A stretch of 10,864 nt of DNA from Desulfobacterales bacterium (GTDB taxonomy: Bacteria; Desulfobacterota; Desulfobacteria; Desulfobacterales; UBA5616): the NCBI GenBank assembly GCA_046483495.1, contig JAWODC010000055.1:1-10864 (forward strand), read 5' to 3'. The notes below the pieces were generated by a model. It saw only the letters and a program-made list of their open reading frames with translations. It made no database searches and was not told the origin of the DNA. The position numbers were made by a program, and so were the translations under genes. Shown in pieces: positions 1-10,864 of the stretch; positions within the stretch are counted from its first letter, which is position 1, and each line of letters begins with the position of its first letter.

Positions 1-166
1 AACAGCTCACACAATGCCTTGCTCCCACAAAGTCCGCCAGCGCCTTTTCAAATTCCTGCACCTCGGGACCCATGATGTACTTGCCGTGCTGCAGCACATC
101 TTGAATTCTTTTGTCTATCTGGTCTTTGATCCTTTTCTGTTGGGCGGATAAGTCTATGAATTGCAT
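1..166 (-). CDS. DegT/DnrJ/EryC1/StrS family PLP-dependent sugar aminotransferase (WbpE-like), N-terminal part, truncated by window edge
   Basis: Not in the ORF track. Manual translation from ATG at 166 gives MQFIDLSAQQKRIKDQIDKRIQDVLQHGKYIMGPEVQEFEKALADFVGARHCVSC, which carries the family N-terminal motifs FIDL and G.YI.GPEV..FE..LA. An SD-like AAAGGAAG lies upstream. Confidence 0.93.
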   Translation of the reverse strand, partial: MQFIDLSAQQKRIKDQIDKRIQDVLQHGKYIMGPEVQEFEKALADFVGARHCVSC

Positions 167-252
167 ATTTCTTCCTTTCTTGTCCTCTGTCACCACGAAG
201 GTTTTAAAAACCAAAAAAAACAAAAAATTCACCACGAAGTTAATCCGTGCAA

Positions 253-258
253 AGTCAA
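253..258 (-). promoter_or_regulatory. -35 half (TTGACT) of circle-junction promoter; the -10 half (TATGAG) is at 2006-2001
   Basis: Joining the IS ends through one CTT gives TTGACT-ttgcacggattaacttg(17 nt)-TATGAG, pointing into the putative bridge RNA and transposase. Confidence 0.7.
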
Positions 259-332
259 GTAAAAAATTTATGTATAATCGGGTTTACCAAGGTTTACCCA
301 GCATATATTGCTCTTTGAAAATTCGGTAAAGG

Positions 333-1733
333 CTATACTTTAGCAAGCACATCTGATAATATGGAGCCTATGTGGGCGGGGGCTGAGATCCCGCGCTTAG
401 TGTCGTTAACACTTTGGGACTGCTCCCGCTCCACTCTTTTCTTGCGTTGCCGCCTGGATACCGGGGCAGCGGGATTGTAGTCTTTAAAACGACGTTCTTT
501 TCTTTCCCTCCCGGTCGCTGCTATGGCCTGTAGCAGGCGCTCTCTGTTAGCCCTGTCGATTTTTGGATCGAACGCGGTGTTATTCTTCAGCATTCCAAAA
601 ACAATCCTAAGAATTTTGTGCATGCAAATACCGATAGCATCCATTTTTTTTCTTCCCTGATGGATATGGTATTCGTACAAAGGCTTAATAACGGGATTTT
701 TATGGATAGCCGATAGAGCAACGTTAAATAGAATCTTGCGGGGAGCCTTGCGGCCTTGTTTGCTCATTTTGTAACCGCCGCTGCCGTCTCCACTGATTTT
801 ATAGACCGGATGCACTCCCCAGAACGAGGCGAGCTTTTTAACGCTTTTAAAGCGCGCTACCGACTCCATTTCGAGGATCAAACCGATTGCCGATTTGTCG
901 CCGATGCCTACAAACGTTTTCAGCAGTTCGACTTCGGGCAGATCGCAAGCACTGATCATCAGTTCGTTCTGGGCGGCAATCGTTTTTTTAAGATGCAAGA
1001 TCTGTTTGGCTGTGGCGCTGACCAGCTGACTGCTCACCTCATCGGTGCCAGAGGCCACTGAACGCTTTGCGTTGGCTATCAGCTGCTGTGCGCGCTGCAT
1101 TGTGATATAGGGGATCCTGACCAACGTTTTGGCGCGGGCTCTTTTCACCTGCCTTGCTGTAGGGTAATCGGTCAGCAGCCTTAACAGCCAGTCCGGCAGA
1201 CCGTCCTGGCAAAAAGACAGCAACTCCGGATGGGCCGTATATAAAAGACTGTTGAGTTGGTTTCGAAATTGGGTGCTTTGCTTGGTCAACATTTCGATAA
1301 AGCCCCATTGCTTTCGAAGCGAGGCCATGGGGTCGTGGTGCTGATAGGTCACCTTTTCCGGGTGCGCCACCAGGTACTCGGCAATATTTTGCGCACTGAT
1401 TTTATCGGTTGTGTTGCGCTTTAGATCCGCTTTGCTGTTATGGGCTACGCCCAATGGATTTAAACGAGCGGTTTTGATGTTCAACGAGGCCTGGAATCGG
1501 GTCAATGCATTGTACCAGTTGTTTTCGTACCCGCCGGTGCTTTCCATGGCCGCATGCAGGGTCGCTTTTGGATGGCGGTTTAAGAATTCCTGTAAAATGC
1601 CGTGCAACCGGTTGTGCGAGTCAAACGTATCGTCGAGTTGAAAGCTGTCGATCATGGGTTGTTTTTTCTGGTTGATGATCACGAAATCCGCGTACCCTTT
1701 ACTTACATCGATACCGAGGTAGAATGATTCCAT
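333..1733 (-). CDS. IS110 family transposase/recombinase (DEDD_Tnp_IS110 + Transposase_20 domains), 466 aa
   Basis: Motifs are GIDVSK (D9), MESTGGY (E64), LNP, TDKISA (D110) and the C-terminal ASFWGVHP...ISG (S314)...MSKQG...RKILF. A strong SD AGGAGG lies at 1742-1747. Confidence 0.96.
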   Translation of the reverse strand: MESFYLGIDVSKGYADFVIINQKKQPMIDSFQLDDTFDSHNRLHGILQEFLNRHPKATLHAAMESTGGYENNWYNALTRFQASLNIKTARLNPLGVAHNSKADLKRNTTDKISAQNIAEYLVAHPEKVTYQHHDPMASLRKQWGFIEMLTKQSTQFRNQLNSLLYTAHPELLSFCQDGLPDWLLRLLTDYPTARQVKRARAKTLVRIPYITMQRAQQLIANAKRSVASGTDEVSSQLVSATAKQILHLKKTIAAQNELMISACDLPEVELLKTFVGIGDKSAIGLILEMESVARFKSVKKLASFWGVHPVYKISGDGSGGYKMSKQGRKAPRKILFNVALSAIHKNPVIKPLYEYHIHQGRKKMDAIGICMHKILRIVFGMLKNNTAFDPKIDRANRERLLQAIAATGRERKERRFKDYNPAAPVSRRQRKKRVEREQSQSVNDTKRGISAPAHIGSILSDVLAKV

Positions 1734-1761
1734 TGAGCGGTCCTCCTTTTTCAGTCAAATG

Positions 1762-1994
1762 GGAGCCAGGTAACATCAGCCTTGTAAATATGCGGTGTCA
1801 TGCACCAGGTTAATCCCCGATTTTACCCTGGCGGTTGGAAGAAACTTCGTGACGGGTTCGAGACCCACTACACGACCCTTCTCAACTCCAGGCTATAGAC
1901 TTTGCCGAAAAAAGAAAACCCAGAAATTTTTTACATTTCGGTGTGGGGGGGACACCCCCCACACCCCCCGTTAAAAATAATTTTTTATGTTTGA
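1762..1994 (-). ncRNA. Putative bridge RNA of the IS110 element (ends approximate)
   Basis: Two stem/internal-loop/hairpin modules. Target loop 1834-1886 has guides UCGUG(U) (1875-1870) and CACGAAG (1851-1845). Donor loop 1765-1832 has guides GGAUUAAC (1816-1809) and UACAAG (1786-1781). A 5' hairpin lies at 1940-1965. The 5' end is inferred from the junction promoter. Confidence 0.85.
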
Positions 1995-2008
1995 ACTTTA
2001 CTCATACA

Positions 2009-2172
2009 AGCACGAAGAACACGAAGATTTTTTTGCTTCCAGCAAAAAAGGTGGGCCGGCGCAAGCGGGCCACCCGCCGCAGCGATCAGCCAAGGCGGAA
2101 TTGTTATGATTCGTTTTGATTCGTGGACAATTTCTTCCTTATCGTGAGCGCAGCGAACGATCAGAAACCAAT
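2009..2172 (+). repeat. Repeat A copy 1 (about 165 bp, multi-hairpin), split from its 5' end (228-239) by the IS110
   Basis: Aligns with 6039-6204 with about 7 differences by eye. Confidence 0.92.
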
Positions 2173-2288
2173 GGTGAAAGGGGCGATGTCGCGCCAATTC
2201 TTTTCTGCTCCAATGCCGTTTCTTTCAAGTTAGAACGGGCGGGGATGAAAGGCCGCCGACAACCGGTCACCTTCAGGTGAGGATATAA

Positions 2289-2402
2289 AATAAAGCACCG
2301 ATACAATTCAATTTGTTAAACCGTGAAATCCGTGTTTACCCTGTGAAACCCGTCTTTTTGTTTTCATCGGGGTCTAAAAAAGCTTTTTAAAATAGAACCG
2401 AT
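2289..2402 (-). repeat. Repeat C core, inverted copy
   Basis: The reverse complement aligns with 4175-4289 and shares GATGAAAACAAAAAGACGGGTTTCACAGGGTAAACACGGATT exactly. Confidence 0.92.
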
Positions 2403-2406
2403 ACCG

Positions 2407-2433
2407 AAAAGTTTAAATGTTAAGAACGTCCCT
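2407..2433 (+). repeat. Repeat B (27 bp), solo copy
   Basis: AAAAGTTTAAATGTTAAGAACGTCCCT is identical to 6375-6401 and to the reverse complement of 5880-5906. Confidence 0.95.
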
Positions 2434-2523
2434 TTTTATATTTCTGTATACGTCTGTGTAGGTCTGTGGCTAACCACCCCGCTTTCGCATATTATTTGTT
2501 TTTTCAAAAGGAGCCGGATCGAC

Positions 2524-4155
2524 ATGATAACTTCTACACAAACCAGTGCACAAGCCCTCGCGAATGTAAAAGAAATCGACGAAAACGAATTCGTAATGAA
2601 CGCCACCCTCCGAATCTGCTCCAGCCTGGACCCGGATATCGCGCTGGAAAATCTTCTGTTATATTTGAAAGATTATATTCCGGTCGCCGGCATTCACCTG
2701 GGGCATATCGACGCCATTGCAAACGGGTTTCGCTTCCCGGCATGGGCCACCATCAACAACACCAAGCGCCCGAAGCCGTTCGTCAAGATTCCAAAGCATT
2801 TGAGGGAGCGCGTTTACCGTTTCTGGGAAATGAAGAACCGGTTCGAAGTCATCAACTATGATGACATCAAAAGCCCCCAGCTCAAGGAAATCGTCGAACT
2901 GGCCTGGCCGATGACCTCGAGGCTCACCATGAGACTGGACATGAACGGGCAGCGCATCGGAGCCCTGGGCCTTTTCATGCAGGGGAAGGACCGCTTCACG
3001 GACCGCCATCTCCGATTAGTGCTCAAGCTGCATGACCCCATCGCCATGGCCATGTCGAACGCACTGAAGTACCAGGAGATCAAAAAGCTGAAGGAAGATA
3101 TCACGGATGACAACCGCTATCTCAGGGAACAACTATTCAAAATTTCAGGCGATGAGATTGTCGGGAGCCATTCCGGCTTAAGGCAGGTGGTTCGCAAAAT
3201 CGAGCAGGTGGCCCGGTTGGACACGCCGGTTCTGCTGCTGGGGGAGACCGGGGTGGGAAAGGAAGTCATCGCCAATACGCTTCACAAGGCGTCCACGAGA
3301 AAAGACGGCCCTTTCATCAAGGTGAACTGCGGGGCGATACCGGATTCGCTGATCGACAGCGAACTGTTCGGCTATGAAAAGGGGGCGTTCACCGGGGCGG
3401 TGACGCAAAAACGGGGAAGGTTCGAGCAGGCGCACAACGGCACCATTTTTTTAGATGAAATCGGGGAGCTTACCACCTCTGCACAGGTTCGATTGCTGCG
3501 GATACTCGAAAACATGGAGATCGTCCGCGTGGGCGGCGGCGTTCCCATCAAGGTCAATATCCGGGTGATCAGCGCCACGAACAAGGACCTGGAAGAAATG
3601 GTGGCCACGGGGGCGTTTCGGGAGGATTTGTACTTTCGTTTGAACGTATTTCCCATCGTGATTCCGCCGCTCAGGCAGCGGAAAAACGACATACCGCTGT
3701 TGATCAATTACTTCATCAAGAAAAAGCGCATCGAGCTGAATATCGGCAAGAACATCAAACCGGCGCCGGATATGTTCGAAACACTCAGGGACTACAGCTG
3801 GCCCGGAAATGTCCGGGAGCTTGAAAACCTTGTCGAACGCTCGCTGATCGAGGCCAACGGGAATCCGGCGTCGGAATACCTCCACTTGATACCCTCCGGC
3901 AAAAAAAACGGCAGGACCGGCGGCGGCCGGCTGTTCGTGGAACATAAGATCCTCAGCCTGGACGAGGCCGTCAGGCGCCACATCGAGGCCGCCATGGCGG
4001 CGGCGTGCGGAAAAGTCGAAGGGGCAGGCGGTGCTGCGGAGCTGCTCGATGTCCACCCGAGCACGCTTCGGGCGAAAATGCGGAAGCTGGGGATTCCTCA
4101 TGGGCGCGTAAAAAATCGGACAGGGTCTGCTTTTTTGGTGAACAGTGAACAGTGA
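2524..4155 (+). CDS. Sigma54-dependent transcriptional activator (GAF-like + AAA+ + Fis-type HTH; FhlA/NifA-like architecture)
   Basis: Motifs are Walker A GETGVGKE, SELFGYEKGAFTGA, FLDEIGEL, FREDLYFRLNV, WPGNVREL and the C-terminal GAAELL...STLRAKMRKLGI. SD AGGAG lies at 2509-2513. Confidence 0.95.
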   Translation: MITSTQTSAQALANVKEIDENEFVMNATLRICSSLDPDIALENLLLYLKDYIPVAGIHLGHIDAIANGFRFPAWATINNTKRPKPFVKIPKHLRERVYRFWEMKNRFEVINYDDIKSPQLKEIVELAWPMTSRLTMRLDMNGQRIGALGLFMQGKDRFTDRHLRLVLKLHDPIAMAMSNALKYQEIKKLKEDITDDNRYLREQLFKISGDEIVGSHSGLRQVVRKIEQVARLDTPVLLLGETGVGKEVIANTLHKASTRKDGPFIKVNCGAIPDSLIDSELFGYEKGAFTGAVTQKRGRFEQAHNGTIFLDEIGELTTSAQVRLLRILENMEIVRVGGGVPIKVNIRVISATNKDLEEMVATGAFREDLYFRLNVFPIVIPPLRQRKNDIPLLINYFIKKKRIELNIGKNIKPAPDMFETLRDYSWPGNVRELENLVERSLIEANGNPASEYLHLIPSGKKNGRTGGGRLFVEHKILSLDEAVRRHIEAAMAAACGKVEGAGGAAELLDVHPSTLRAKMRKLGIPHGRVKNRTGSAFLVNSEQ

Positions 4156-4341
4156 ACAGTGAACGGGCCAGTGGATTGGTTCTATTTTATAAAAAACATT
4201 TTAGACCCTGATGAAAACAAAAAGACGGGTTTCACAGGGTAAACACGGATTGCACTGTTTAAAAAATTACATCGGATCGGTGCTTTATTGTATGTTTCAC
4301 CATGTTTTTATCTCACTACGAATATTACAAGAAGTACGAAT
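4138..4341 (+). repeat. Repeat C copy, starting with four GTGAAC(A) units
   Basis: Near-identical to 8018-8214, with a few substitutions and one extra heptamer. Confidence 0.95.
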
Positions 4342-4387
4342 TTTTAAATCAGGAAAAGCCATCTGACGCCGCCGATCCGCCGCCCCG

Positions 4388-4418
4388 TTTAGAATTTGGA
4401 ATTTAGAATTTCGAATTT
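4388..4418. repeat. Heptamer tandem array (TTTNGAA)x4
   Basis: Reads tttagaa tttggaa tttagaa tttcgaa ttt. It is preceded by CGCCGCCGAT...CCGTTT, as at 8304-8348. Confidence 0.85.
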
Positions 4419-4464
4419 GTTCACCCTTTTTCACCAAATACCGAACCACCCGCCCCCGCACTCC
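4418..4464 (-). pseudogene. Duplicated fragment of the 3' end of the O-antigen ligase-like gene (RGRVVRYLVKKGEQ)
   Basis: 4418-4460 matches 8452-8494 at 41/43 nt, and both differences are synonymous Val third positions. Confidence 0.85.
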
Positions 4465-4471
4465 TTTCTGC

Positions 4472-4499
4472 TTGCAATCCTCACGGGTTTGGATATAAT
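4472..4499 (+). promoter_or_regulatory. Candidate sigma70 promoter for the 4Fe-4S protein gene
   Basis: TTGCAA-N16-TATAAT, about 220 nt upstream of the likely start codon. Confidence 0.55.
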
Positions 4500-4720
4500 C
4501 CTTTCTATCATTTCTCGACAGGCATGCAGACCTGTCTGCCATCACTGTCATCGCTATCGGAGCAGGACACGATATCCCGGTTTCCAGAGATCGTAACCCG
4601 GTTTACACAGACAAGGACTTGCCCGGTGATCATCGGATCGGTTCCATGTTACCGGGCCAATGGACCATTCGAAATTCGACGAAACCTTTTTTCATGCAGC
4701 AACCCATCGGGAGGTGCACC

Positions 4721-5779
4721 ATGGCTGACAATGTTTACAAACGGCTCAGGGAATTTTTAGACCGGCTGCCGGCAGGGTTTCCGGAAACCCCGGACGGCGT
4801 TGAAATCAAGCTGCTGAAAAAGATGTTTACGCCGGAACAGGCCGAATTGGTTATGAACCTGACGAGCACGCCGGAAACGGTTGCCGAAATCGCATCCCGG
4901 ACGGGTATGGACGAGCGCCGGCTGGCCGAACAGCTCGAGCAGATGTGCAAGGACGGCCTGATCTTCCGCGTCCGGGAGGGAGATACCCCGAAGTACCAGG
5001 CATTCCAGTTCCTCATCGGCTTGTATGAATTTCAGGTCAACCGTCTGGACAGGGAGTTCTGCGAACTGTTCGAAGCGTACATGCCCCACATCGGGTTGTC
5101 CATGGCGTCTCTGCCCAAACAGTTGAGGGTGGTTCCCGTGGAATCATCCCTTGCGGGTTATCCCGAGGTGGCCCCGTACAACCGGATTCGTGAAATGGTC
5201 GACAAAGAAGAGGTCATCTCTGTCACCGATTGCATCTGCAAAAAGGAACAGGGCATCTTAGGCAATCCCTGCTCCAAACCCATGGAGGTCTGCATAATGT
5301 TCGGCGATTGGGCCCGGTTTTATGTAGAGAACGGCAATGCCAGGCAGATCGACGGGGCCGAGGCCGACAAGATTCTCGATCTGGCCGAAGAAAACGGCCT
5401 GGTGCTGCAAATCGGTAACTCCCAGGACATGCTGGCGATATGCTGCTGCTGCGCCTGCTGCTGTCCGGGGCTCAAAAACATCAAGCTTTTTCCGAATCCC
5501 GGCGAACTGGTGATGTCCTATTACCGCTCTGTTATTGACGGCGAACTGTGCACCGGGTGCGGTGAGTGCATCGAGATCTGCCCCATGGACGCCATTGAAG
5601 ACAAAGACGGCATTTCGTTGGTGTCGGACCCAAGGTGCATCGGATGCGGGTTGTGCGTCAACCGCTGTCCGGTGGAAGCCATCGCTCTTGTAGAACGCGG
5701 GGATAAAACCGACGCACCGCCCCGGACCTTTCAAGACCTCACGGACAGCATCGCCGCCCAACGGGGGGTGCAACCGTAA
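4721..5779 (+). CDS. 4Fe-4S dicluster (ferredoxin-like) protein with N-terminal winged-helix-like region, 352 aa
   Basis: Two CxxCxxCxxxCP motifs (CTGCGECIEICP, CIGCGLCVNRCP), an extra Cys cluster CIC...C...C, and ICCCCACCC. The start is placed at ATG 4721 because of GGAGGT at 4710-4715. Confidence 0.9.
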   Translation: MADNVYKRLREFLDRLPAGFPETPDGVEIKLLKKMFTPEQAELVMNLTSTPETVAEIASRTGMDERRLAEQLEQMCKDGLIFRVREGDTPKYQAFQFLIGLYEFQVNRLDREFCELFEAYMPHIGLSMASLPKQLRVVPVESSLAGYPEVAPYNRIREMVDKEEVISVTDCICKKEQGILGNPCSKPMEVCIMFGDWARFYVENGNARQIDGAEADKILDLAEENGLVLQIGNSQDMLAICCCCACCCPGLKNIKLFPNPGELVMSYYRSVIDGELCTGCGECIEICPMDAIEDKDGISLVSDPRCIGCGLCVNRCPVEAIALVERGDKTDAPPRTFQDLTDSIAAQRGVQP

Positions 5780-5955
5780 ATTGAAGGAAAGGAGAAAAGC
5801 CGAATGCCACCCGCCGGAAGATCCCATGTGTTTGTCCGAACGGCCGCCGGGGACCTTCGCCCCGTTGGGCAGTAGGAACAGGGACGTTCTTAACATTTAA
5901 ACTTTTACCTTCGTTGGGTTCTACAGCGATAGAAGACGAACCCTGCTCACTCCAA

Positions 5956-6012
5956 ATCGGGATCGGGATCGGGATCGAAAATCAAAATAGAAAATTCGAT
6001 CCCGATCCTGAT
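5956..6012. repeat. Hexamer-based hairpin (ATCGGG)n...(CCCGAT)n
   Basis: 5962-5979 pairs with 5995-6012 over 18 bp with one G-T pair. Confidence 0.85.
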
Positions 6013-6026
6013 GAAACGCGTTTTTT

Positions 6027-6204
6027 TTCACCACGAAGAGCACAAAGAACACGAAGATTTTTTTTGCTTCCAGCAAAAAAGGTGGGCCGGCGCAATCGGG
6101 CCACCCGCCGCAGCGATCAGCCAAGGCGGAATTGTTATTATTCGTTTTGATTCGTGGACGATTTCTTCCTGATCGTGAGCGCAGCGAACGATCAGACAAC
6201 CAAT
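6027..6204 (+). repeat. Repeat A copy 2 (uninterrupted)
   Basis: Begins TTCACCACGAAGAGCACAAAGAACACGAAG and continues as in 2009-2172. Its head is inverted relative to 6322-6349. Confidence 0.92.
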
Positions 6205-6403
6205 ACCTTTCTGCTTATCGCACACCAATTACAGGTCCGAACCAAATCAGGCCCCGGATAGATTTTATTTCGATTAATTTCATTTAACACGAAGGTGTGT
6301 TAACAATTATTTTTTCGTTTTTCTTCGTGCTCTTCGTGCTTCGTGGTGAGATAAAAAATAAAGAACCGATCCCTAAAAGTTTAAATGTTAAGAACGTCCC
6401 TTT

Positions 6404-7690
6404 TTACCTCTGCGGCGGTTTCAGCATCAGGGAAAACACGACCCCCAGGAACAGTGTCAGGGATAAACACAAAAACACCAGGTTGTAATCGCCGGTTCGC
6501 TCGGCAATGTAGCCGCCCGCCACCGGAACCACCGCAGCGAATATAATCAGGATCGGCCCGATAACAGCACCGATATTAGCGAAGGCATCCGGGCCGAAAT
6601 AATTGCCGATCATGACCGATAGGATGACTATCAGGCTGCCGAAGCAGAATCCGAACACCGGGGCTGTGACCATAAGCCAAGTGATACTCCCGGCGCTCCA
6701 AATGCCCAGGAATGTGATGAACAACAGAAGCATGGATGTAAAAATGATCCAGCGGGGCTCTATCCGGTCACCGATCCAGCCGATGGAAAATCGGGCAACT
6801 CCGCTGGCAAATATCAGAATGCTCAGAAAAGTTGCGGACTGCATCTGGGTATATCCCTTGTCCATTAAATGAAGAACGCCATGGGATATGACCAGGACTA
6901 TGGCCATCGTATACGTGCCCCCGACGATCACGGTGCACCAAAGCACCGGTTTTTTGATAATGTCGCGCAAGCCCCAGATTTCTGCGGTTCTGTAGGTTCG
7001 AGCAGATTTTTTCAGGACGTTGGCACGCTCCGTATCGTTCGGGTTTATCCCGTCCGGGTGCTGCCCTACATCGGATGGTTTGTTTTTCAGCCGGAATGAA
7101 ATCATCATCGCCAGGATGCTGAAGGCGGCCGCGGCAAGCCAGGCTATTCTCCAGGACTGAACCCGATTCATCATAAACGTGAAAAGCGGTTGAGCTACAA
7201 ATCCCCCCATGGCGCCGGCCGACATCACAATGCCGAGAACCGTGGCCCGCTTCACGTTAAACCAATGCATGACCGTTGTCTGAACCGGCAGCAGACCGGT
7301 GAATCCATTTCCGACGGCAATAAAAACCCCCCATATGAGAATCCATTGCCATATTTCATTCACTTTAATTCCGAGAAGGAGAAGACCGGTGATCATAAAT
7401 GCCAGTCCGACATGTATGGTTTTCTTGGCGCCGATTTTGTTGATGGAGACGGCGATAACAGGCGACAGAAAGCCGGTCAGCACGGCATTCAAGCTGTATG
7501 CAATCGAGGCTTGTCCCCGTCCCCATCGCATATCCAGGATCATCTCAGGGAAGATGACCGCGTAACCCAAATTCACGATCCCCATCAGCGCAAAAATCGT
7601 AAACAAGATGCCGGTGTTGATCCAACCATAGAATGGGCGGGTTTCCCGGGCGGGAATAATCATGGCGCCACCTGTATTTAAGAGTGACAA
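6404..7690 (-). CDS. MFS transporter (OFA/monocarboxylate-porter-like; substrate unknown)
   Basis: About 12 hydrophobic segments, N-terminal FYGW, WF.vKRAT.LG, and GWIGDRIEPR (an MFS motif A-like loop). The start could be TTG 7690 or ATG 7663. Confidence 0.92.
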   Translation of the reverse strand: MSLLNTGGAMIIPARETRPFYGWINTGILFTIFALMGIVNLGYAVIFPEMILDMRWGRGQASIAYSLNAVLTGFLSPVIAVSINKIGAKKTIHVGLAFMITGLLLLGIKVNEIWQWILIWGVFIAVGNGFTGLLPVQTTVMHWFNVKRATVLGIVMSAGAMGGFVAQPLFTFMMNRVQSWRIAWLAAAAFSILAMMISFRLKNKPSDVGQHPDGINPNDTERANVLKKSARTYRTAEIWGLRDIIKKPVLWCTVIVGGTYTMAIVLVISHGVLHLMDKGYTQMQSATFLSILIFASGVARFSIGWIGDRIEPRWIIFTSMLLLFITFLGIWSAGSITWLMVTAPVFGFCFGSLIVILSVMIGNYFGPDAFANIGAVIGPILIIFAAVVPVAGGYIAERTGDYNLVFLCLSLTLFLGVVFSLMLKPPQR

Positions 7691-8000
7691 ATATCTCCGT
7701 GCAGGCTGTCTGTTTTAATCAGGATGGTCAATAAGATTTGGAACGGCCGATGATTCGGTCAGTATGGAAAATGAAGTTTCCCTCCCGCTTTTAAATGAAA
7801 AGAAATTTATCATTTCCGGATAGACACCTTTAAGCATTCCGAACGGCCGATTTTCTCGATATAATTAACCCTAAACTGCAGTTTTGGTCAACTGAAAATC
7901 GAAAGATCCATGTCTCAGGCCAATCAACGAAATTCCTTCGGTATGATCTTCGTGGTGAGATAACATATAAAGTACCGATCCGGTTTTTTTTTAACCGTGA

Positions 8001-8214
8001 AATCCGTGTATAAAAAAGTGAACAGTGAACAGTGAACGGGCCAGTGGATTGGTTCTATTTTATAAAAAACATTTCAGACCCTGATGAAAACAAAAAGACG
8101 GGTTTCACAGGGTAAACACGGATTTCACTGTTTAAAAAATTACATCGGATCGGTGCTCTATTGTATGTTTCACCATGTTTTTATCTCACTACGAATATTA
8201 CGAGAAGTACGAAT
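8001..8214 (+). repeat. Repeat C copy with three GTGAAC(A) units
   Basis: Near-identical to 4138-4341. The 5' part AATCCGTGTATAAAAAA is shared with the copy starting at 10788. Confidence 0.95.
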
Positions 8215-8324
8215 GGTTTTTATTTTTCTTCGTGTCCTTCGTGCTCCTCATGGTTTTTAAAACAATCTTTTGGTTGTCATACGATTCAGCGAACATGATT
8301 CGCCGCCGCCGATAAACCGCCCCG

Positions 8325-8348
8325 TTTTGAATTTTGAATTTTGAATTT
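8325..8348. repeat. Heptamer tandem array (TTTTGAA)x3
   Basis: Read directly from the sequence. Confidence 0.85.
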
Positions 8349-8387
8349 GTTTAGTGCAGCTTTTTAAAACAGAACCGATCCCTACCA

Positions 8388-8457
8388 AACCCATCACCCC
8401 TCACCCATAACCTATAACCCCTCACCCATAACCTGTTCTTTTACTGTTCACTGTTCA
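8388..8457. repeat. Heptamer arrays: about 7 units of (A/C)ACC(C/T)(A/C)T followed by (CTGTTCA)x2
   Basis: Reads aacccat cacccct cacccat aacctat aacccct cacccat aacctgt, then ctgttca ctgttca overlapping the ligase stop codon. Confidence 0.85.
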
Positions 8458-10742
8458 CCCTTTTTAACCAAATACCGAACAACCCGCCCCCGCAACTCCA
8501 AATCCTCAACCGGCAAAATCCCCAAAACAACCCCATGATCCCCAAAATACCCCGAAACAAAGTCCACACACCGCTTCCACCGGTAAGGCCGCAGCGCCAG
8601 ATACCGCCGAAACAGCCCCTGGAACTTCGCAATTCCCGCCTCCCGCGTCAGCGCCGCAGAACCGCCGGCGGCAGCCTCCTCCGGCAGCAGCCCGGCCCGC
8701 CACACCCAGTACCGCGAGGCCCCGGCAAGGATCGTCCCGTCCCTGGGCGACAAAAAAACGGCCGTGTCGTGGCATTCGTCCGCCAACGGAATCCACACCC
8801 TCAGGTACCGGTACAGGTCGTCGTCCCGGCTGCGGCACGCCGCGGCCAGGGCGTGCCAGTACTTGCCGCGGGCCGGGTTGTTCATCACCGCTGTCTTCAG
8901 CAAGGATACCGCCGCATCGGCATCACCGCCCGATCCCTGCGCCGCCTGCAGGTGATGAACAGCCAGCCGGTACGGGTATTCGGCATTCAGTGGGTTGCGG
9001 GCCATGGCCCGCTCGATGTCCGCCGGCGCAAGGTCCCGGTTGAGGTTGAACGTCGAGTTCTTCTCCGTGGCGCACGCCGCCTCGGCCGCCCAGTGGGCGC
9101 CGGCCGCCCACATCAGCGCACCTGCGCCGGCGATGACGGCCAGGCACACTGCAGGTTTGATCCGCTTCGGCAGCGGCACGCGCGCCGTGCGGTAGAAAAA
9201 CGTCACGCCGTAACCGTGGCCCCGGTGGTGCAGAGCGACAAACCCCAGGCCCAGCACAACGGCCAATGTCAAGGGGTTGGCCGGTGTGTGCATGTTGAAG
9301 TCGACAAGGCTGTGCAGTCCGATGGCGACCATCGCGGCCAATGCGCCGGCCGTGACGCCCACCGCATAGGCGTTGCGCCGCCGCCGCCAGACCCGCGCCA
9401 TCCGGACGAACAGCACGAAAAACGCCGCAAGCATAAGGGCCAGGCCCGGCAGCCCCAACTCGGTGCCCGCCTCCAGCCAGTCGTTGTGGGGATTGCCGTT
9501 GTAGTAGTCGGCCGCCCGGCCGCCGGGCTCGTACTGCGCAAACAGGTCCGGGTTATTGCCCCACCCCACCCCGGTGACCGGGTAGTCCATCAGCATGGGA
9601 ATCAGGCTCCTGGACAGCGCGATCCGGCCGTTCAGCCCCTGGGTCTTTTCGAATTTCTCCAGGGTGGGATCGATGCCCACGGACAGCCCGTACACGAAGG
9701 TGAACAGACAGAAGGCCAGCGACATCAGCCCGATTCCGGCCTGCTTTTTCCGGGAGAGGAAAAGCCCGGCCATCACGAGCATGGCCATACTGATCGACAG
9801 GATGCCGCCCCGGGAGGCGGACAGGAGCAGGGCCACGCCCATGACCACGGCTGCGGCGACAAAGACGATCTTCAGCGGCGCCGCCGATTCGGGCGAAAAC
9901 CGCCCCAGCAGCCGCTGAAACCGGGCCCGGGCTCCGCCCAATCCGGCTTCCATGCGGGTGGTCTTTTTCTTCAGGGTCAGCACGTATCCCCAGGCCATGC
10001 ACAGGGTCATTTCCATGTAGCCGGCGAAGTGGTTGGAGCCGATGAAGGTGCCGGAGGCGTAACGCCCTCCCCCGGCTCGGCTTTGCCACCACAGGACCCT
10101 GGGTGAGAGGGAAAACACCTGGGAGACGGCATACAGGGCCTCGAAGAGGCCCATGGCGATGACGGCCAGGAGGAGGATGTCCATTCGGCGTTTGGTGTTG
10201 ACGGTGTTCAGGACGAGGAAGAACAGGGTCAGGTAGGCCAGGAGTTTGAGTGCTTGCCTTAGGGTGCCGTGAACGTTGTGGGTTATAGGTGATGGTTTAT
10301 GGGTTATGGGGGAGGGGTTTGACTGTGAACGGTGAACAGTGAACAGTGAACGGTTGGTGGATGGGGAACCGTTGGGGCTTTCAGCTTTGAGATTCGAGTT
10401 TTCGACTTCGTTTATTTTTTCGACAATCGCGGCGGCATGGGACTTGAGGGCGGCCGTGTTCGGGGAAATCGCTTCCATCCACGAGAGCGGCATGGGAACG
10501 AGCTGCAGGGCGATGATCGCCGGGATGCCGGCGAGCAGCAGCCCGATCGGGGTCTTTACCCAGGTGAATTCCTTTTTTCCCTTTTCGCAGATTTTGCCGA
10601 GGGCGTATAGGGCCGCCAGGGCGAATATGACGATCTCCACGAAACTGTACGCCCAGACGTGCACTGCTCCGAAAGCGAGCGGGGCGAACATGATGAGGAA
10701 TATTATGCCGGCGAATACTGTTTTTTCTGTGATTTTTGCCAT
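8448..10742 (-). CDS. O-antigen ligase/Wzy_C family membrane protein with C-terminal TPR-like region, 764 aa
   Basis: Multiple TM segments with motifs GTFIGSNHFAGY, SASRGG, PVTGVGWGN, PHNDWLE...ELGLPG and HSLVDFNMHTPAN. The helical tail includes NPLNAEYPYRLA and NPARGKYWHALA. Confidence 0.9.
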   Translation of the reverse strand: MAKITEKTVFAGIIFLIMFAPLAFGAVHVWAYSFVEIVIFALAALYALGKICEKGKKEFTWVKTPIGLLLAGIPAIIALQLVPMPLSWMEAISPNTAALKSHAAAIVEKINEVENSNLKAESPNGSPSTNRSLFTVHRSQSNPSPITHKPSPITHNVHGTLRQALKLLAYLTLFFLVLNTVNTKRRMDILLLAVIAMGLFEALYAVSQVFSLSPRVLWWQSRAGGGRYASGTFIGSNHFAGYMEMTLCMAWGYVLTLKKKTTRMEAGLGGARARFQRLLGRFSPESAAPLKIVFVAAAVVMGVALLLSASRGGILSISMAMLVMAGLFLSRKKQAGIGLMSLAFCLFTFVYGLSVGIDPTLEKFEKTQGLNGRIALSRSLIPMLMDYPVTGVGWGNNPDLFAQYEPGGRAADYYNGNPHNDWLEAGTELGLPGLALMLAAFFVLFVRMARVWRRRRNAYAVGVTAGALAAMVAIGLHSLVDFNMHTPANPLTLAVVLGLGFVALHHRGHGYGVTFFYRTARVPLPKRIKPAVCLAVIAGAGALMWAAGAHWAAEAACATEKNSTFNLNRDLAPADIERAMARNPLNAEYPYRLAVHHLQAAQGSGGDADAAVSLLKTAVMNNPARGKYWHALAAACRSRDDDLYRYLRVWIPLADECHDTAVFLSPRDGTILAGASRYWVWRAGLLPEEAAAGGSAALTREAGIAKFQGLFRRYLALRPYRWKRCVDFVSGYFGDHGVVLGILPVEDLELRGRVVRYLVKKGEQ
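10279..10351. repeat. Heptamer arrays inside the ligase-like CDS, in frame
   Basis: (TTATGGG)-type units at 10279-10320 and four GTGAAC(A/G) units at 10325-10351, translated as RSLFTVHRSQSNPSPITHKPSPITH. Confidence 0.85.
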
Positions 10743-10787
10743 TTTTCTATCGAGTGATGGACATTGCTGCTGCGTGCGTTGCCTTGC

Positions 10788-10864
10788 AATCCGTGTATAA
10801 AAAAAGTGAACAGTGAACAGTGAACAGTGAACGGGCCAGTGGATTGGTTCTATTTTAGAAAAAA
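10788..10864 (+). repeat. Repeat C, third direct copy, truncated by window edge
   Basis: AATCCGTGTATAAAAAAA, four GTGAAC(A) units, then GGGCCAGTGGATTGGTTCTATTTTA. Confidence 0.92.

Follow-up and report, generated by a model that had tools for sequence, protein, structure and literature searches.

A predicted bridge RNA of a Desulfobacterales IS110 element whose insertion site may have been set mainly by the right target guide

Introduction

A stretch of DNA of 10,864 nucleotides from a Desulfobacterales bacterium (assembly GCA_046483495.1, contig JAWODC010000055.1, positions 1 to 10,864) carries a short noncoding segment upstream of a transposase gene in which an initial annotation had read a bridge RNA by eye. 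Four guide words were proposed there, and these were matched to a target and a donor that had been reconstructed from the element's own ends. The questions raised by this locus are whether the segment is indeed a bridge RNA and, if so, which of its guides directed the element to the site that it now occupies. Hereafter, "the window" denotes the whole 10,864-nucleotide stretch, all coordinates are positions within it, and features lie on its minus strand unless stated otherwise.

The answer reached by comparing this sequence with those of its relatives is that the segment is a predicted bridge RNA and belongs to an intact IS110 element. The insertion site appears to have been determined chiefly by the right target guide, which has seven bases, and the left target guide lies out of its usual register. 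A probability of roughly 0.7 is assigned to this reading. That the stretch is a bridge RNA by descent and design can be regarded as nearly certain, and is distinct from the question of how the site was chosen.

The element and its target

The element spans 1,773 bp when both of its CT cores are included (238-2010), and its relatives span 1,626-2,147 bp. Its boundaries were read from both junctions and are supported by evidence that does not rest on the RNA, namely an empty allele on contig C91 of the same genome and a second right end on contig C6. At the left end, the left target arm CTTCGTG is joined to the left CT core at 2010-2009 (together 2009-2017), and the junction reads TTCGTG-CT-TGTATG. 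At the right end (238-258), a -35-like TTGACT (258-253) and the left donor arm GGATTAA (246-240) precede the right CT core (239-238), and the junction GGATTAA-CT-TCGTGG continues into the right target arm TCGTG(GT) (231-237). Insertion around the CT core is scarless and long terminal inverted repeats are absent, with only a 3-base signal for a subterminal inverted repeat (77 of 108 pairs, compared to a null of 61.6). The target that had been reconstructed from these flanks proves to be real. The word TTCGTGCTTCGTG, with a single CT, occurs five times as an empty site in the same genome, one of these being in the C91 repeat that shares the window's left flank.

The targeted host element is a dispersed intergenic repeat that ends in tandem CTTCGTG units (2011-2250) and has a paralogue at 6204-6027. 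Copies that are 92-95% identical reside on C91 and C89, and weaker ones on C93, C58, and C38. The window's left flank matches the C91 repeat at 92% identity across 252 bp, and in a contig from DNA run X2 this flank runs on into C91-type downstream sequence, as an empty repeat would. The genome contains 398 CTTCGTG words, and its exact sites comprise 17 with a two-base spacer, five with a zero-base spacer, and none with a one-base spacer. The target makes up one arm of this repeat, and its units can be seen in the window at 2250-2011, 6204-6027, 6322-6349, and 8228-8243, and also on C91, C93, and C69. In the genome of a relative, G002, the repeat units occur 114 times, mostly as REP-like inverted pairs 40-60 bp apart. 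This genome, which is 75% complete and in which no element was detected, has one zero-spacer site versus 114 two-base-spacer sites, a count that bears on whether zero-spacer units are scars of the element.

A second, truncated copy of the element in the same genome (L121, at C6:15065-15154 of G000) consists of the last 90 bp of the right end, which are 100% identical to those in the window, followed by CTTCGTGGTG. The 116 bp that precede it, up to the contig end, have no other match in the genome. Because 157 bp of downstream sequence are common to C6 and C91 and are not shared by the window, the window's two flanks may derive from two copies. The reconstructed 14-base target is unchanged whether the flanks come from one copy or from two.

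Several other features of the neighborhood can be recorded. At the right junction (249-233), CACG at the end of the element and CGTG in the target could pair to form a short hairpin, probably by chance. A gene starts 70 bp past the right end of the element (166-1). On the other side lie genes for a sigma-54 activator (2524-4155, plus strand), a 4Fe-4S protein (4619-5779, plus strand), an MFS transporter (6404-7690), and an O-antigen-ligase-domain protein (8448-10742).

The collection of relatives

Relatives were gathered from genome contigs (40 loci), from metagenomes (16 loci) by using a pattern that fixed only the right target guide and the scaffold, from genome searches, and from viral contigs. 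A total of 122 loci, many of them duplicates, were examined; four from the window's own genome were set aside, and a target loop could be parsed in 106. The donor consensus served to place left junctions, and the left donor guide combined with a TTGAC-like anchor served to place right ones. Because donor motifs were used to call the junctions, counts for the donor guides and the promoter are partly circular, whereas tests of the target guides are not. Two loci, L074, whose right end is false, and L022, whose left end is ambiguous, were excluded from the counts concerned.

Named relatives with more than 57% identity are mostly Desulfobacterales or Deltaproteobacteria, and more distant ones are Bacteroidota and others. 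Viral contigs gave three pattern matches and no usable junctions, and plasmid records gave only distant IS110s that are about 26% identical. Two loci in genome G863 (L164 and L165) begin like left ends (about 90% identity over 84 bp) and lack a bridge RNA in the next 330 bases; these are possibly non-autonomous or deleted derivatives.

The recombinase

The recombinase gene (333-1733) is an open frame of 466 codons for amino acids, with AGGAGG at 1747-1742. Its product exceeds the curated cut-offs for both the N-terminal DEDD_Tnp_IS110 domain (PF01548) and Transposase_20 (PF02371), and scores 150.3 bits against NF033542 (cut-off 140). An AlphaFold2 model with a mean pLDDT of 91.7 has extra helices at about residues 169-230 and a less certain C-terminal tail. 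The protein had been assigned to a divergent, longer lineage, and this is correct only by a small amount, given that 466 residues lies just above the 300-460 residues reported for IS110 recombinases and that two members of the clade are already present as unnamed rows in the same source (PMC11208160).

Residues D9, E64, D110, and S314 align with D11, E60, D102, and S241 of IS621. The full DEDD tetrad is absent here, with S113 at the fourth position, where IS621 has D105. Among 232 full-length relatives (270 fetched), this position is Ser in 224, Ala in eight, and Asp in none, compared to 24 Asp and one Ser in the 25 readable outgroup IS110s from 34 loci. The catalytic Tnp serine is retained in 231 of the 232, and D35, E70, and D316 are near-invariant in the same set (D316 in 230). 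In IS621, D105 binds a metal-coordinating water, and its mutation abolishes recombination (PMC11208158). Ser is found at this position in at least seven rows of a published alignment of 1,054 IS110 proteins, two of which are clade members (PMC11208160), so the DEDD motif is not invariant in the family. Furthermore, some clade members have three or four near-identical copies at different sites, which indicates that the Ser variant moves.

Two candidates for a residue that compensates for S113 were considered. Compensation by D316 is not established, given that locus L149 and several published rows (PMC11208160) are DxxS proteins without SGD; among outgroup proteins with a readable serine loop, none has SGD, in a comparison that includes one misparsed row. 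E70 was dropped because Glu is present there in ordinary IS110s too. L149 itself (genome G503, two copies) is an IS110 that is unrelated; it has Ser at the fourth position, lacks an SGD loop, and falls outside the clade in a quick tree. The window's own genome also carries another gene of the IS110 family, which is distant and whose DxxD motif is ordinary (L148, C83:1177-1614).

Scaffold and folding of the RNA

The RNA is located in the left noncoding end, upstream of the recombinase gene, and the right end is about 95 bp long. A G+C-rich hairpin (1940-1965), predicted by folding and similar in many but not all relatives, is a candidate for the 5' stem-loop of the RNA. The target-binding loop (1833-1888) has an outer stem with a bulged A (1882), a conserved G (1877), and an inner stem-loop (1867-1853), and a donor-binding loop (1765-1832) is given by the structure derived from the alignment. 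The four guide words named by the initial annotation are all present on this strand, namely TCGTG (1875-1871), CACGAAG (1851-1845), GGATTAAC (1816-1809), and TACAAG (1786-1781). Among 100,000 dinucleotide-shuffled versions of these 133 nucleotides, none contains all four words and none the three longer ones, whereas TCGTG alone is present in 14.9%.

Folding of the single sequence, which had been suggested as a check, does not produce the expected form. No open loops are seen, and the minimum-energy fold shuts the target loop (z -0.54) through pairing between the two target guides. This pairing is possible because the target is a tandem repeat with TCGTG in both of its arms, which makes the two target guides complementary and able to zip. 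The cost of opening the target loop is 7.8 kcal/mol here, equal to the median of 7.8 for ten RNAs with the same right guide and above the median of 5.8 for 43 others. Protein binding would presumably have to pay this cost.

The two-loop form was obtained instead from an alignment of 53 RNAs, comprising that of the window and those of 52 of the 54 distinct relatives (L034 and L080 were omitted). RNAalifold predicts two stem-loops with internal loops, with two-sided changes in 21 of 26 pairs. For the two-loop structure as named above, two-sided changes occur in 25 of 28 pairs, and 96% of cells are paired compared to 40-51% in slid controls. Within the target loop, such changes affect all nine outer-stem pairs and four of five inner-stem pairs, and the window's own outer stem is compensated, with TT/AA replacing AA/TT. 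An Rfam search of the window at E values up to 1 gave no match.

Donor guides, handshakes, and the right target guide

The left donor guide GGATTAAC (1809-1816) is identical to 246-239 and tracks the donor over ten guide types, with exact agreement in 59 of 67 rows; both results hold partly by construction. The right donor guide region (1779-1791) includes ACAAG (1785-1781), probable looped-out bases, AT (1791-1790), and a handshake GC (1780-1779). The 5-mer is exact in 79 of 82 rows, again partly by construction. Of the word TACAAG that had been proposed as this guide, five bases are supported, and the sixth matches the donor in only 16 of 45 elements; an upstream AT is present in 32 of 45. 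The right donor guide looks discontiguous, as in IS621 (PMC11208158).

The right target guide CACGAAG (1851-1845) is followed by a handshake TT (1844-1843; together 1843-1851) that is complementary to the donor AA preceding the core. This guide predicts the five bases after the core perfectly at 33 of 44 distinct sites, or at 37 when G:U pairs are allowed. Over 28 distinct guides, the mean agreement is 4.61 of 5 bases versus 1.61 in 20,000 permutations (p 5e-5). Covariation of this kind between the guides and flanks of relatives had been named as a check, and it is borne out. The IS621-type layout, the CT core, and the identity and place of all four guide segments are likewise supported. The 28 guide types indicate that retargeting has occurred naturally, as judged by sequence. 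Mismatches persist in seven of the 44 right arms even when wobble is allowed, and involve at least two bases in three of them. In 34 of 43 elements, pairing could extend by one more target base through the base immediately 5' of the guide, a count for which there is no null. Right flanks that fail to match the guide (1-3 of 5) are those at the right ends of L005 and L052 and that of L028. The L052 flank resembles that of L015, which suggests recombination between elements or a chimeric assembly.

The handshake of the target loop is complementary to the donor in 39 of 43 elements, including the one in the window. The donor-loop handshake pairs with the base preceding the core in 36 of 45 elements, and in the window its GC mismatches the left arm of the site at both positions. 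A difference between the two target arms is also evident at the 41 sites for which both junctions are available. The right arm matches at five of five bases at 32 sites, compared to 13 sites for the left arm in register 0, or 20 if the best of three registers is taken. In G863, three copies with identical left ends have the right arm in common and differ in the left arm. On sequence comparison, the left target arm is looser than the right throughout the clade.

The left target guide and its registers

The left target guide region GTCGTGTAG plus T (1867-1876) contains the seed TCGTG (1875-1871). In this element, the distance from the conserved G to the inner stem is 10 bases in the target loop and 11 in the donor loop. 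At the window's site, the guide matches one of six bases in register 0, two of seven in register +1, and five of five in register -1. The match claimed by the initial annotation is therefore present, in register -1, which is not the usual one for the clade. By this comparison it lies one base off the commonest register and two off that of relatives with the same right guide. With the left guide outside the clade's registers here, the site may have been chosen by some other pairing.

The registers were derived from 46 guide pairs with a left junction by scoring guide positions 2-6, in groups that were defined after the data had been seen and whose members include non-independent kin. The 32 elements with C at position 8 fit register 0, in which the core occupies positions 8-9 (3.16 of 5 versus a null of 1.34); position 1 matches in 16% of them, and register +1 is also slightly above its null (1.81 versus 1.35). 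For the nine elements with a CAYGAAG right guide, register +1 scores 4.11 versus a null of 1.6, and register 0 only 0.33. The four others without C at position 8 score 4.25 in register +1 versus 1.27, and all of them have CT at positions 9-10. In register +1, guide position 5 tracks the target, with C at four of five sites where the guide has C and at none of nine where it has T (Fisher p 0.005). The +1 type is found in at least three separate places in a quick tree. As judged by sequence comparison, two left-guide registers exist within the clade.

At 15 other sites of elements with CAYGAAG guides, the spacer between seed and core is two bases at 11, three bases at one, and zero bases at none, with no clean match at the remaining three. 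The two-base spacer corresponds to TTCGTG-NN-CT, and among CAYGAAG sites only that of the window has a zero-base spacer. With tandem-repeat targets, an upstream seed match may arise from the repeat context alone, and the exact element in the window is known from one full site only. Given the looser left arm, these spacer counts, the handshake mismatch, and the G863 copies, the site is read as having been chosen mainly by the right guide.

In the mechanism that we favor, the donor loop matches the element's own joined ends and the target loop matches the tandem CTTCGTG host repeat. As in IS621, the element would form a circle, and its joined ends would create a sigma-70-type promoter from which the RNA is transcribed. 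Recombinase dimers would then bind each loop, the top strands would be cut beside the CT core via a phosphoserine on S314, and the TT handshake would pair with the donor AA after exchange. The 10-base strand would permit the left guide to be anchored either at the stem, leaving six target bases plus the core (register 0), or at the G, leaving seven plus the core (register +1). The guides in the window would be of the +1 type and would fit TTCGTG-NN-CT-TCGTG, and the element would sit at a zero-spacer unit, one repeat unit downstream of a site of that type.

The main alternative, though rather unlikely, is that the pairing initially proposed does function, with the seed TCGTG adjoining the core in register -1. 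The left guide would then slide freely by 0-3 bases, or the lineage would have been retargeted to zero-spacer units. The seed matches at five of five bases with an additional U:G wobble at the core C, and the element left unused a site seven bases upstream that fits register +1 at six of seven bases. Also, IS621 off-targets reportedly tolerate insertions in the target (PMC11208160). The truncated copy on C6 is probably likewise in a zero-spacer repeat, since the sequence downstream of it is that of the zero-spacer repeat on C91. This hints at a repeated choice of zero-spacer sites and favors this alternative. L031 and L052 match with a three-base spacer; the right arm of L052 is mismatched, and this locus may be a chimera. 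Against this explanation, none of the 15 other sites of this right guide shows zero spacing, and register +1 is used by L050, which at 76% identity is the closest relative for which DNA is available. The donor-loop handshake is mismatched at both positions. Moreover, five of eight empty CTTCGTGG sites in the same genome that have an exact upstream TCGTG show zero spacing, so a seed match is cheap within the repeat.

Predicted promoter and expression

The right donor arm TGTAT (2008-2004) overlaps a -10-like TATGAG (2006-2001; together 2001-2008) of the predicted circle-junction promoter. Joining of the ends would place TTGACT 17 bases from TATGAG, a spacing that is kept over 36 elements in a partly circular count. 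A promoter scan of the linear sequence found nothing relevant, as expected for a promoter that is split. Contigs from RNA runs X4 and X6 include only parts of the recombinase gene, and those from X5 and X9 include nothing on the guide region; no circle joint occurs among the assembled contigs of eight of 15 runs. In both cases, contigs cannot show absence. That this copy is active is something that we infer.

One further observation concerns possible control of the gene. A left-end segment TTCGGCAAAG (TCGGTAAAA in most relatives) is complementary both to a Shine-Dalgarno segment and to a motif after the stop codon; the three segments are at 1918-1900, 1759-1742, and 331-311. When left ends of 32 elements were paired with their own right ends, z values relative to shuffles were below -2 in 19, and the energy was -31.9 kcal/mol against -27.3 kcal/mol with swapped partners. 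L041 carries compensated versions of all three segments, and the window is weak in this respect (z -0.8). One possibility is a switch by which the ribosome-binding site becomes accessible only when the transcript is full-length.

It is unlikely that the RNA is a true bridge RNA by descent in a copy that is now silent or crippled by a weak junction promoter, a self-zipped target loop, and the replacement of a catalytic Asp by Ser. At the last position of the -10 hexamer this copy has G and 32 of 36 elements have T, but this G pairs with C in the short subterminal inverted repeat. The target loop is costlier to open than those of the 43 RNAs with other right guides, but zipping to this degree is common to the ten RNAs that share this one. 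The counterpart of S113 is essential in IS621 (PMC11208158), yet Ser is common to 224 of 232 full-length relatives, including multicopy elements at different sites. Although the second copy (C6) is truncated, the two right ends in the genome have remained 100% identical over 90 bp, the recombinase frame is uninterrupted, and residues D9, E64, D110, and S314 have been retained. Finally, the very improbable notion that these words are not guides, and match only as a side effect of a hairpin or of host-repeat sequence that was captured, can appeal to the single-sequence fold, in which the two target guides are paired, but is contradicted by guides that track flanks over 28 guide types, most with unrelated targets, and by a scaffold held by compensatory changes.

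Comparison with known systems

The locus resembles IS621 in many respects (PMC11208160; PMC11208158; PDB 8WT6). The RNA is in the left end, the target loop precedes the donor loop, and the core is CT. The left guides are identical and the right guides complementary to the top strand, and both loops have a bulged A five bases before a conserved G (PMC11208158). Candidate handshake dinucleotides, a junction promoter (predicted here), the right donor arm CTTGTAT, a dispersed intergenic repeat as the target, and RuvC plus Tnp domains (profile E 5e-47) are likewise shared.

Several differences from IS621 are also evident. In each loop of IS621, 11 bases lie between the inner stem and the conserved G (PMC11208158, supplementary table), whereas the left strand of the target loop here has 10 and is used in two registers. 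The native right target guide has seven bases and makes near-perfect matches, and the left guide is looser. Because the target consists of direct tandem repeats, the guides are complementary to one another. In the protein, Ser replaces the counterpart of D105, D35 and D316 are invariant, about 65 extra helical residues separate the domains, and there is a C-terminal tail of 70 residues.

The best structural relative by sequence is ISCro4/IS622 (10.1101/2025.05.14.653916; PDB 9T56; profile E 1.6e-48), which has in common the logic of a 14-base target and donor with handshake guides. It differs in being about 330 amino acids long with a full DEDD motif and in being 88% identical to IS621. In single-sequence alignment, the window protein matches ISCro4 and IS621 only weakly (E 1e-12). 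Two proteins in Supplementary Table 1 of PMC11208160 (311da97e8ab2097df1 and 1fb29a0ac3c4a407f6) bear the clade motifs G[IL]DVSKGY, DxxSA, and SGDG, and so the clade has already been sampled in the tree of that study. They have no ISfinder name, and their RNA, target, and catalytic variant are not described in the parts of that source consulted. A study of half-match recombination by IS621 (10.64898/2026.08.31.748434) documents insertion where one arm of a guide loop matches. That analysis scored half matches of donor arms and excluded sites that match only the right target guide, the IS621 right guide being short; in the present clade, a long right target guide appears dominant in nature. Among the titles and abstracts searched, no description of a register shift or of a DEDS variant was found. 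Preprint supplements (72 orthologues, 86 RNA models) may include the clade, and one report uses the word register three times (10.64898/2026.03.19.712850).

Elements of the IS1111 group with seekRNAs encode the guide RNA in the right (downstream) end and have long subterminal inverted repeats. Unlike these, the present element has its RNA upstream of the gene and a right end of about 95 bp. Overall, this is a variant of a well-catalogued system and not a new mechanism.

Implications

A more far-reaching proposal, which is rather improbable, can be put forward tentatively. The left guide of this widespread clade may be a floating 5-base seed located 0-3 bases from the core, in a target loop one base shorter than that of IS621, with a 7-8-base right guide that fixes the cut site and a DED-S active site that the invariant Asp located two positions past the catalytic serine may complete in trans. 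If true, the floating seed would let the clade colonize tandem repeats of variable period.

Bridge RNAs are already catalogued by the thousand, with 32,190 loci scored in one collection (10.64898/2026.10.21.760802). One more readable example is modest news, but the clade bears on the design rules of bridge recombinases. Both fixed-column covariation and guide design assume one register, whereas natural elements here appear to use two. A long right guide combined with a permissive left guide offers a naturally occurring model of insertion at off-target sites. Because the clade moves while carrying Ser where IS621 depends on Asp, the role of this residue can be tested, and the 28 natural guide-target pairs on one scaffold would constitute a ready reprogramming set.
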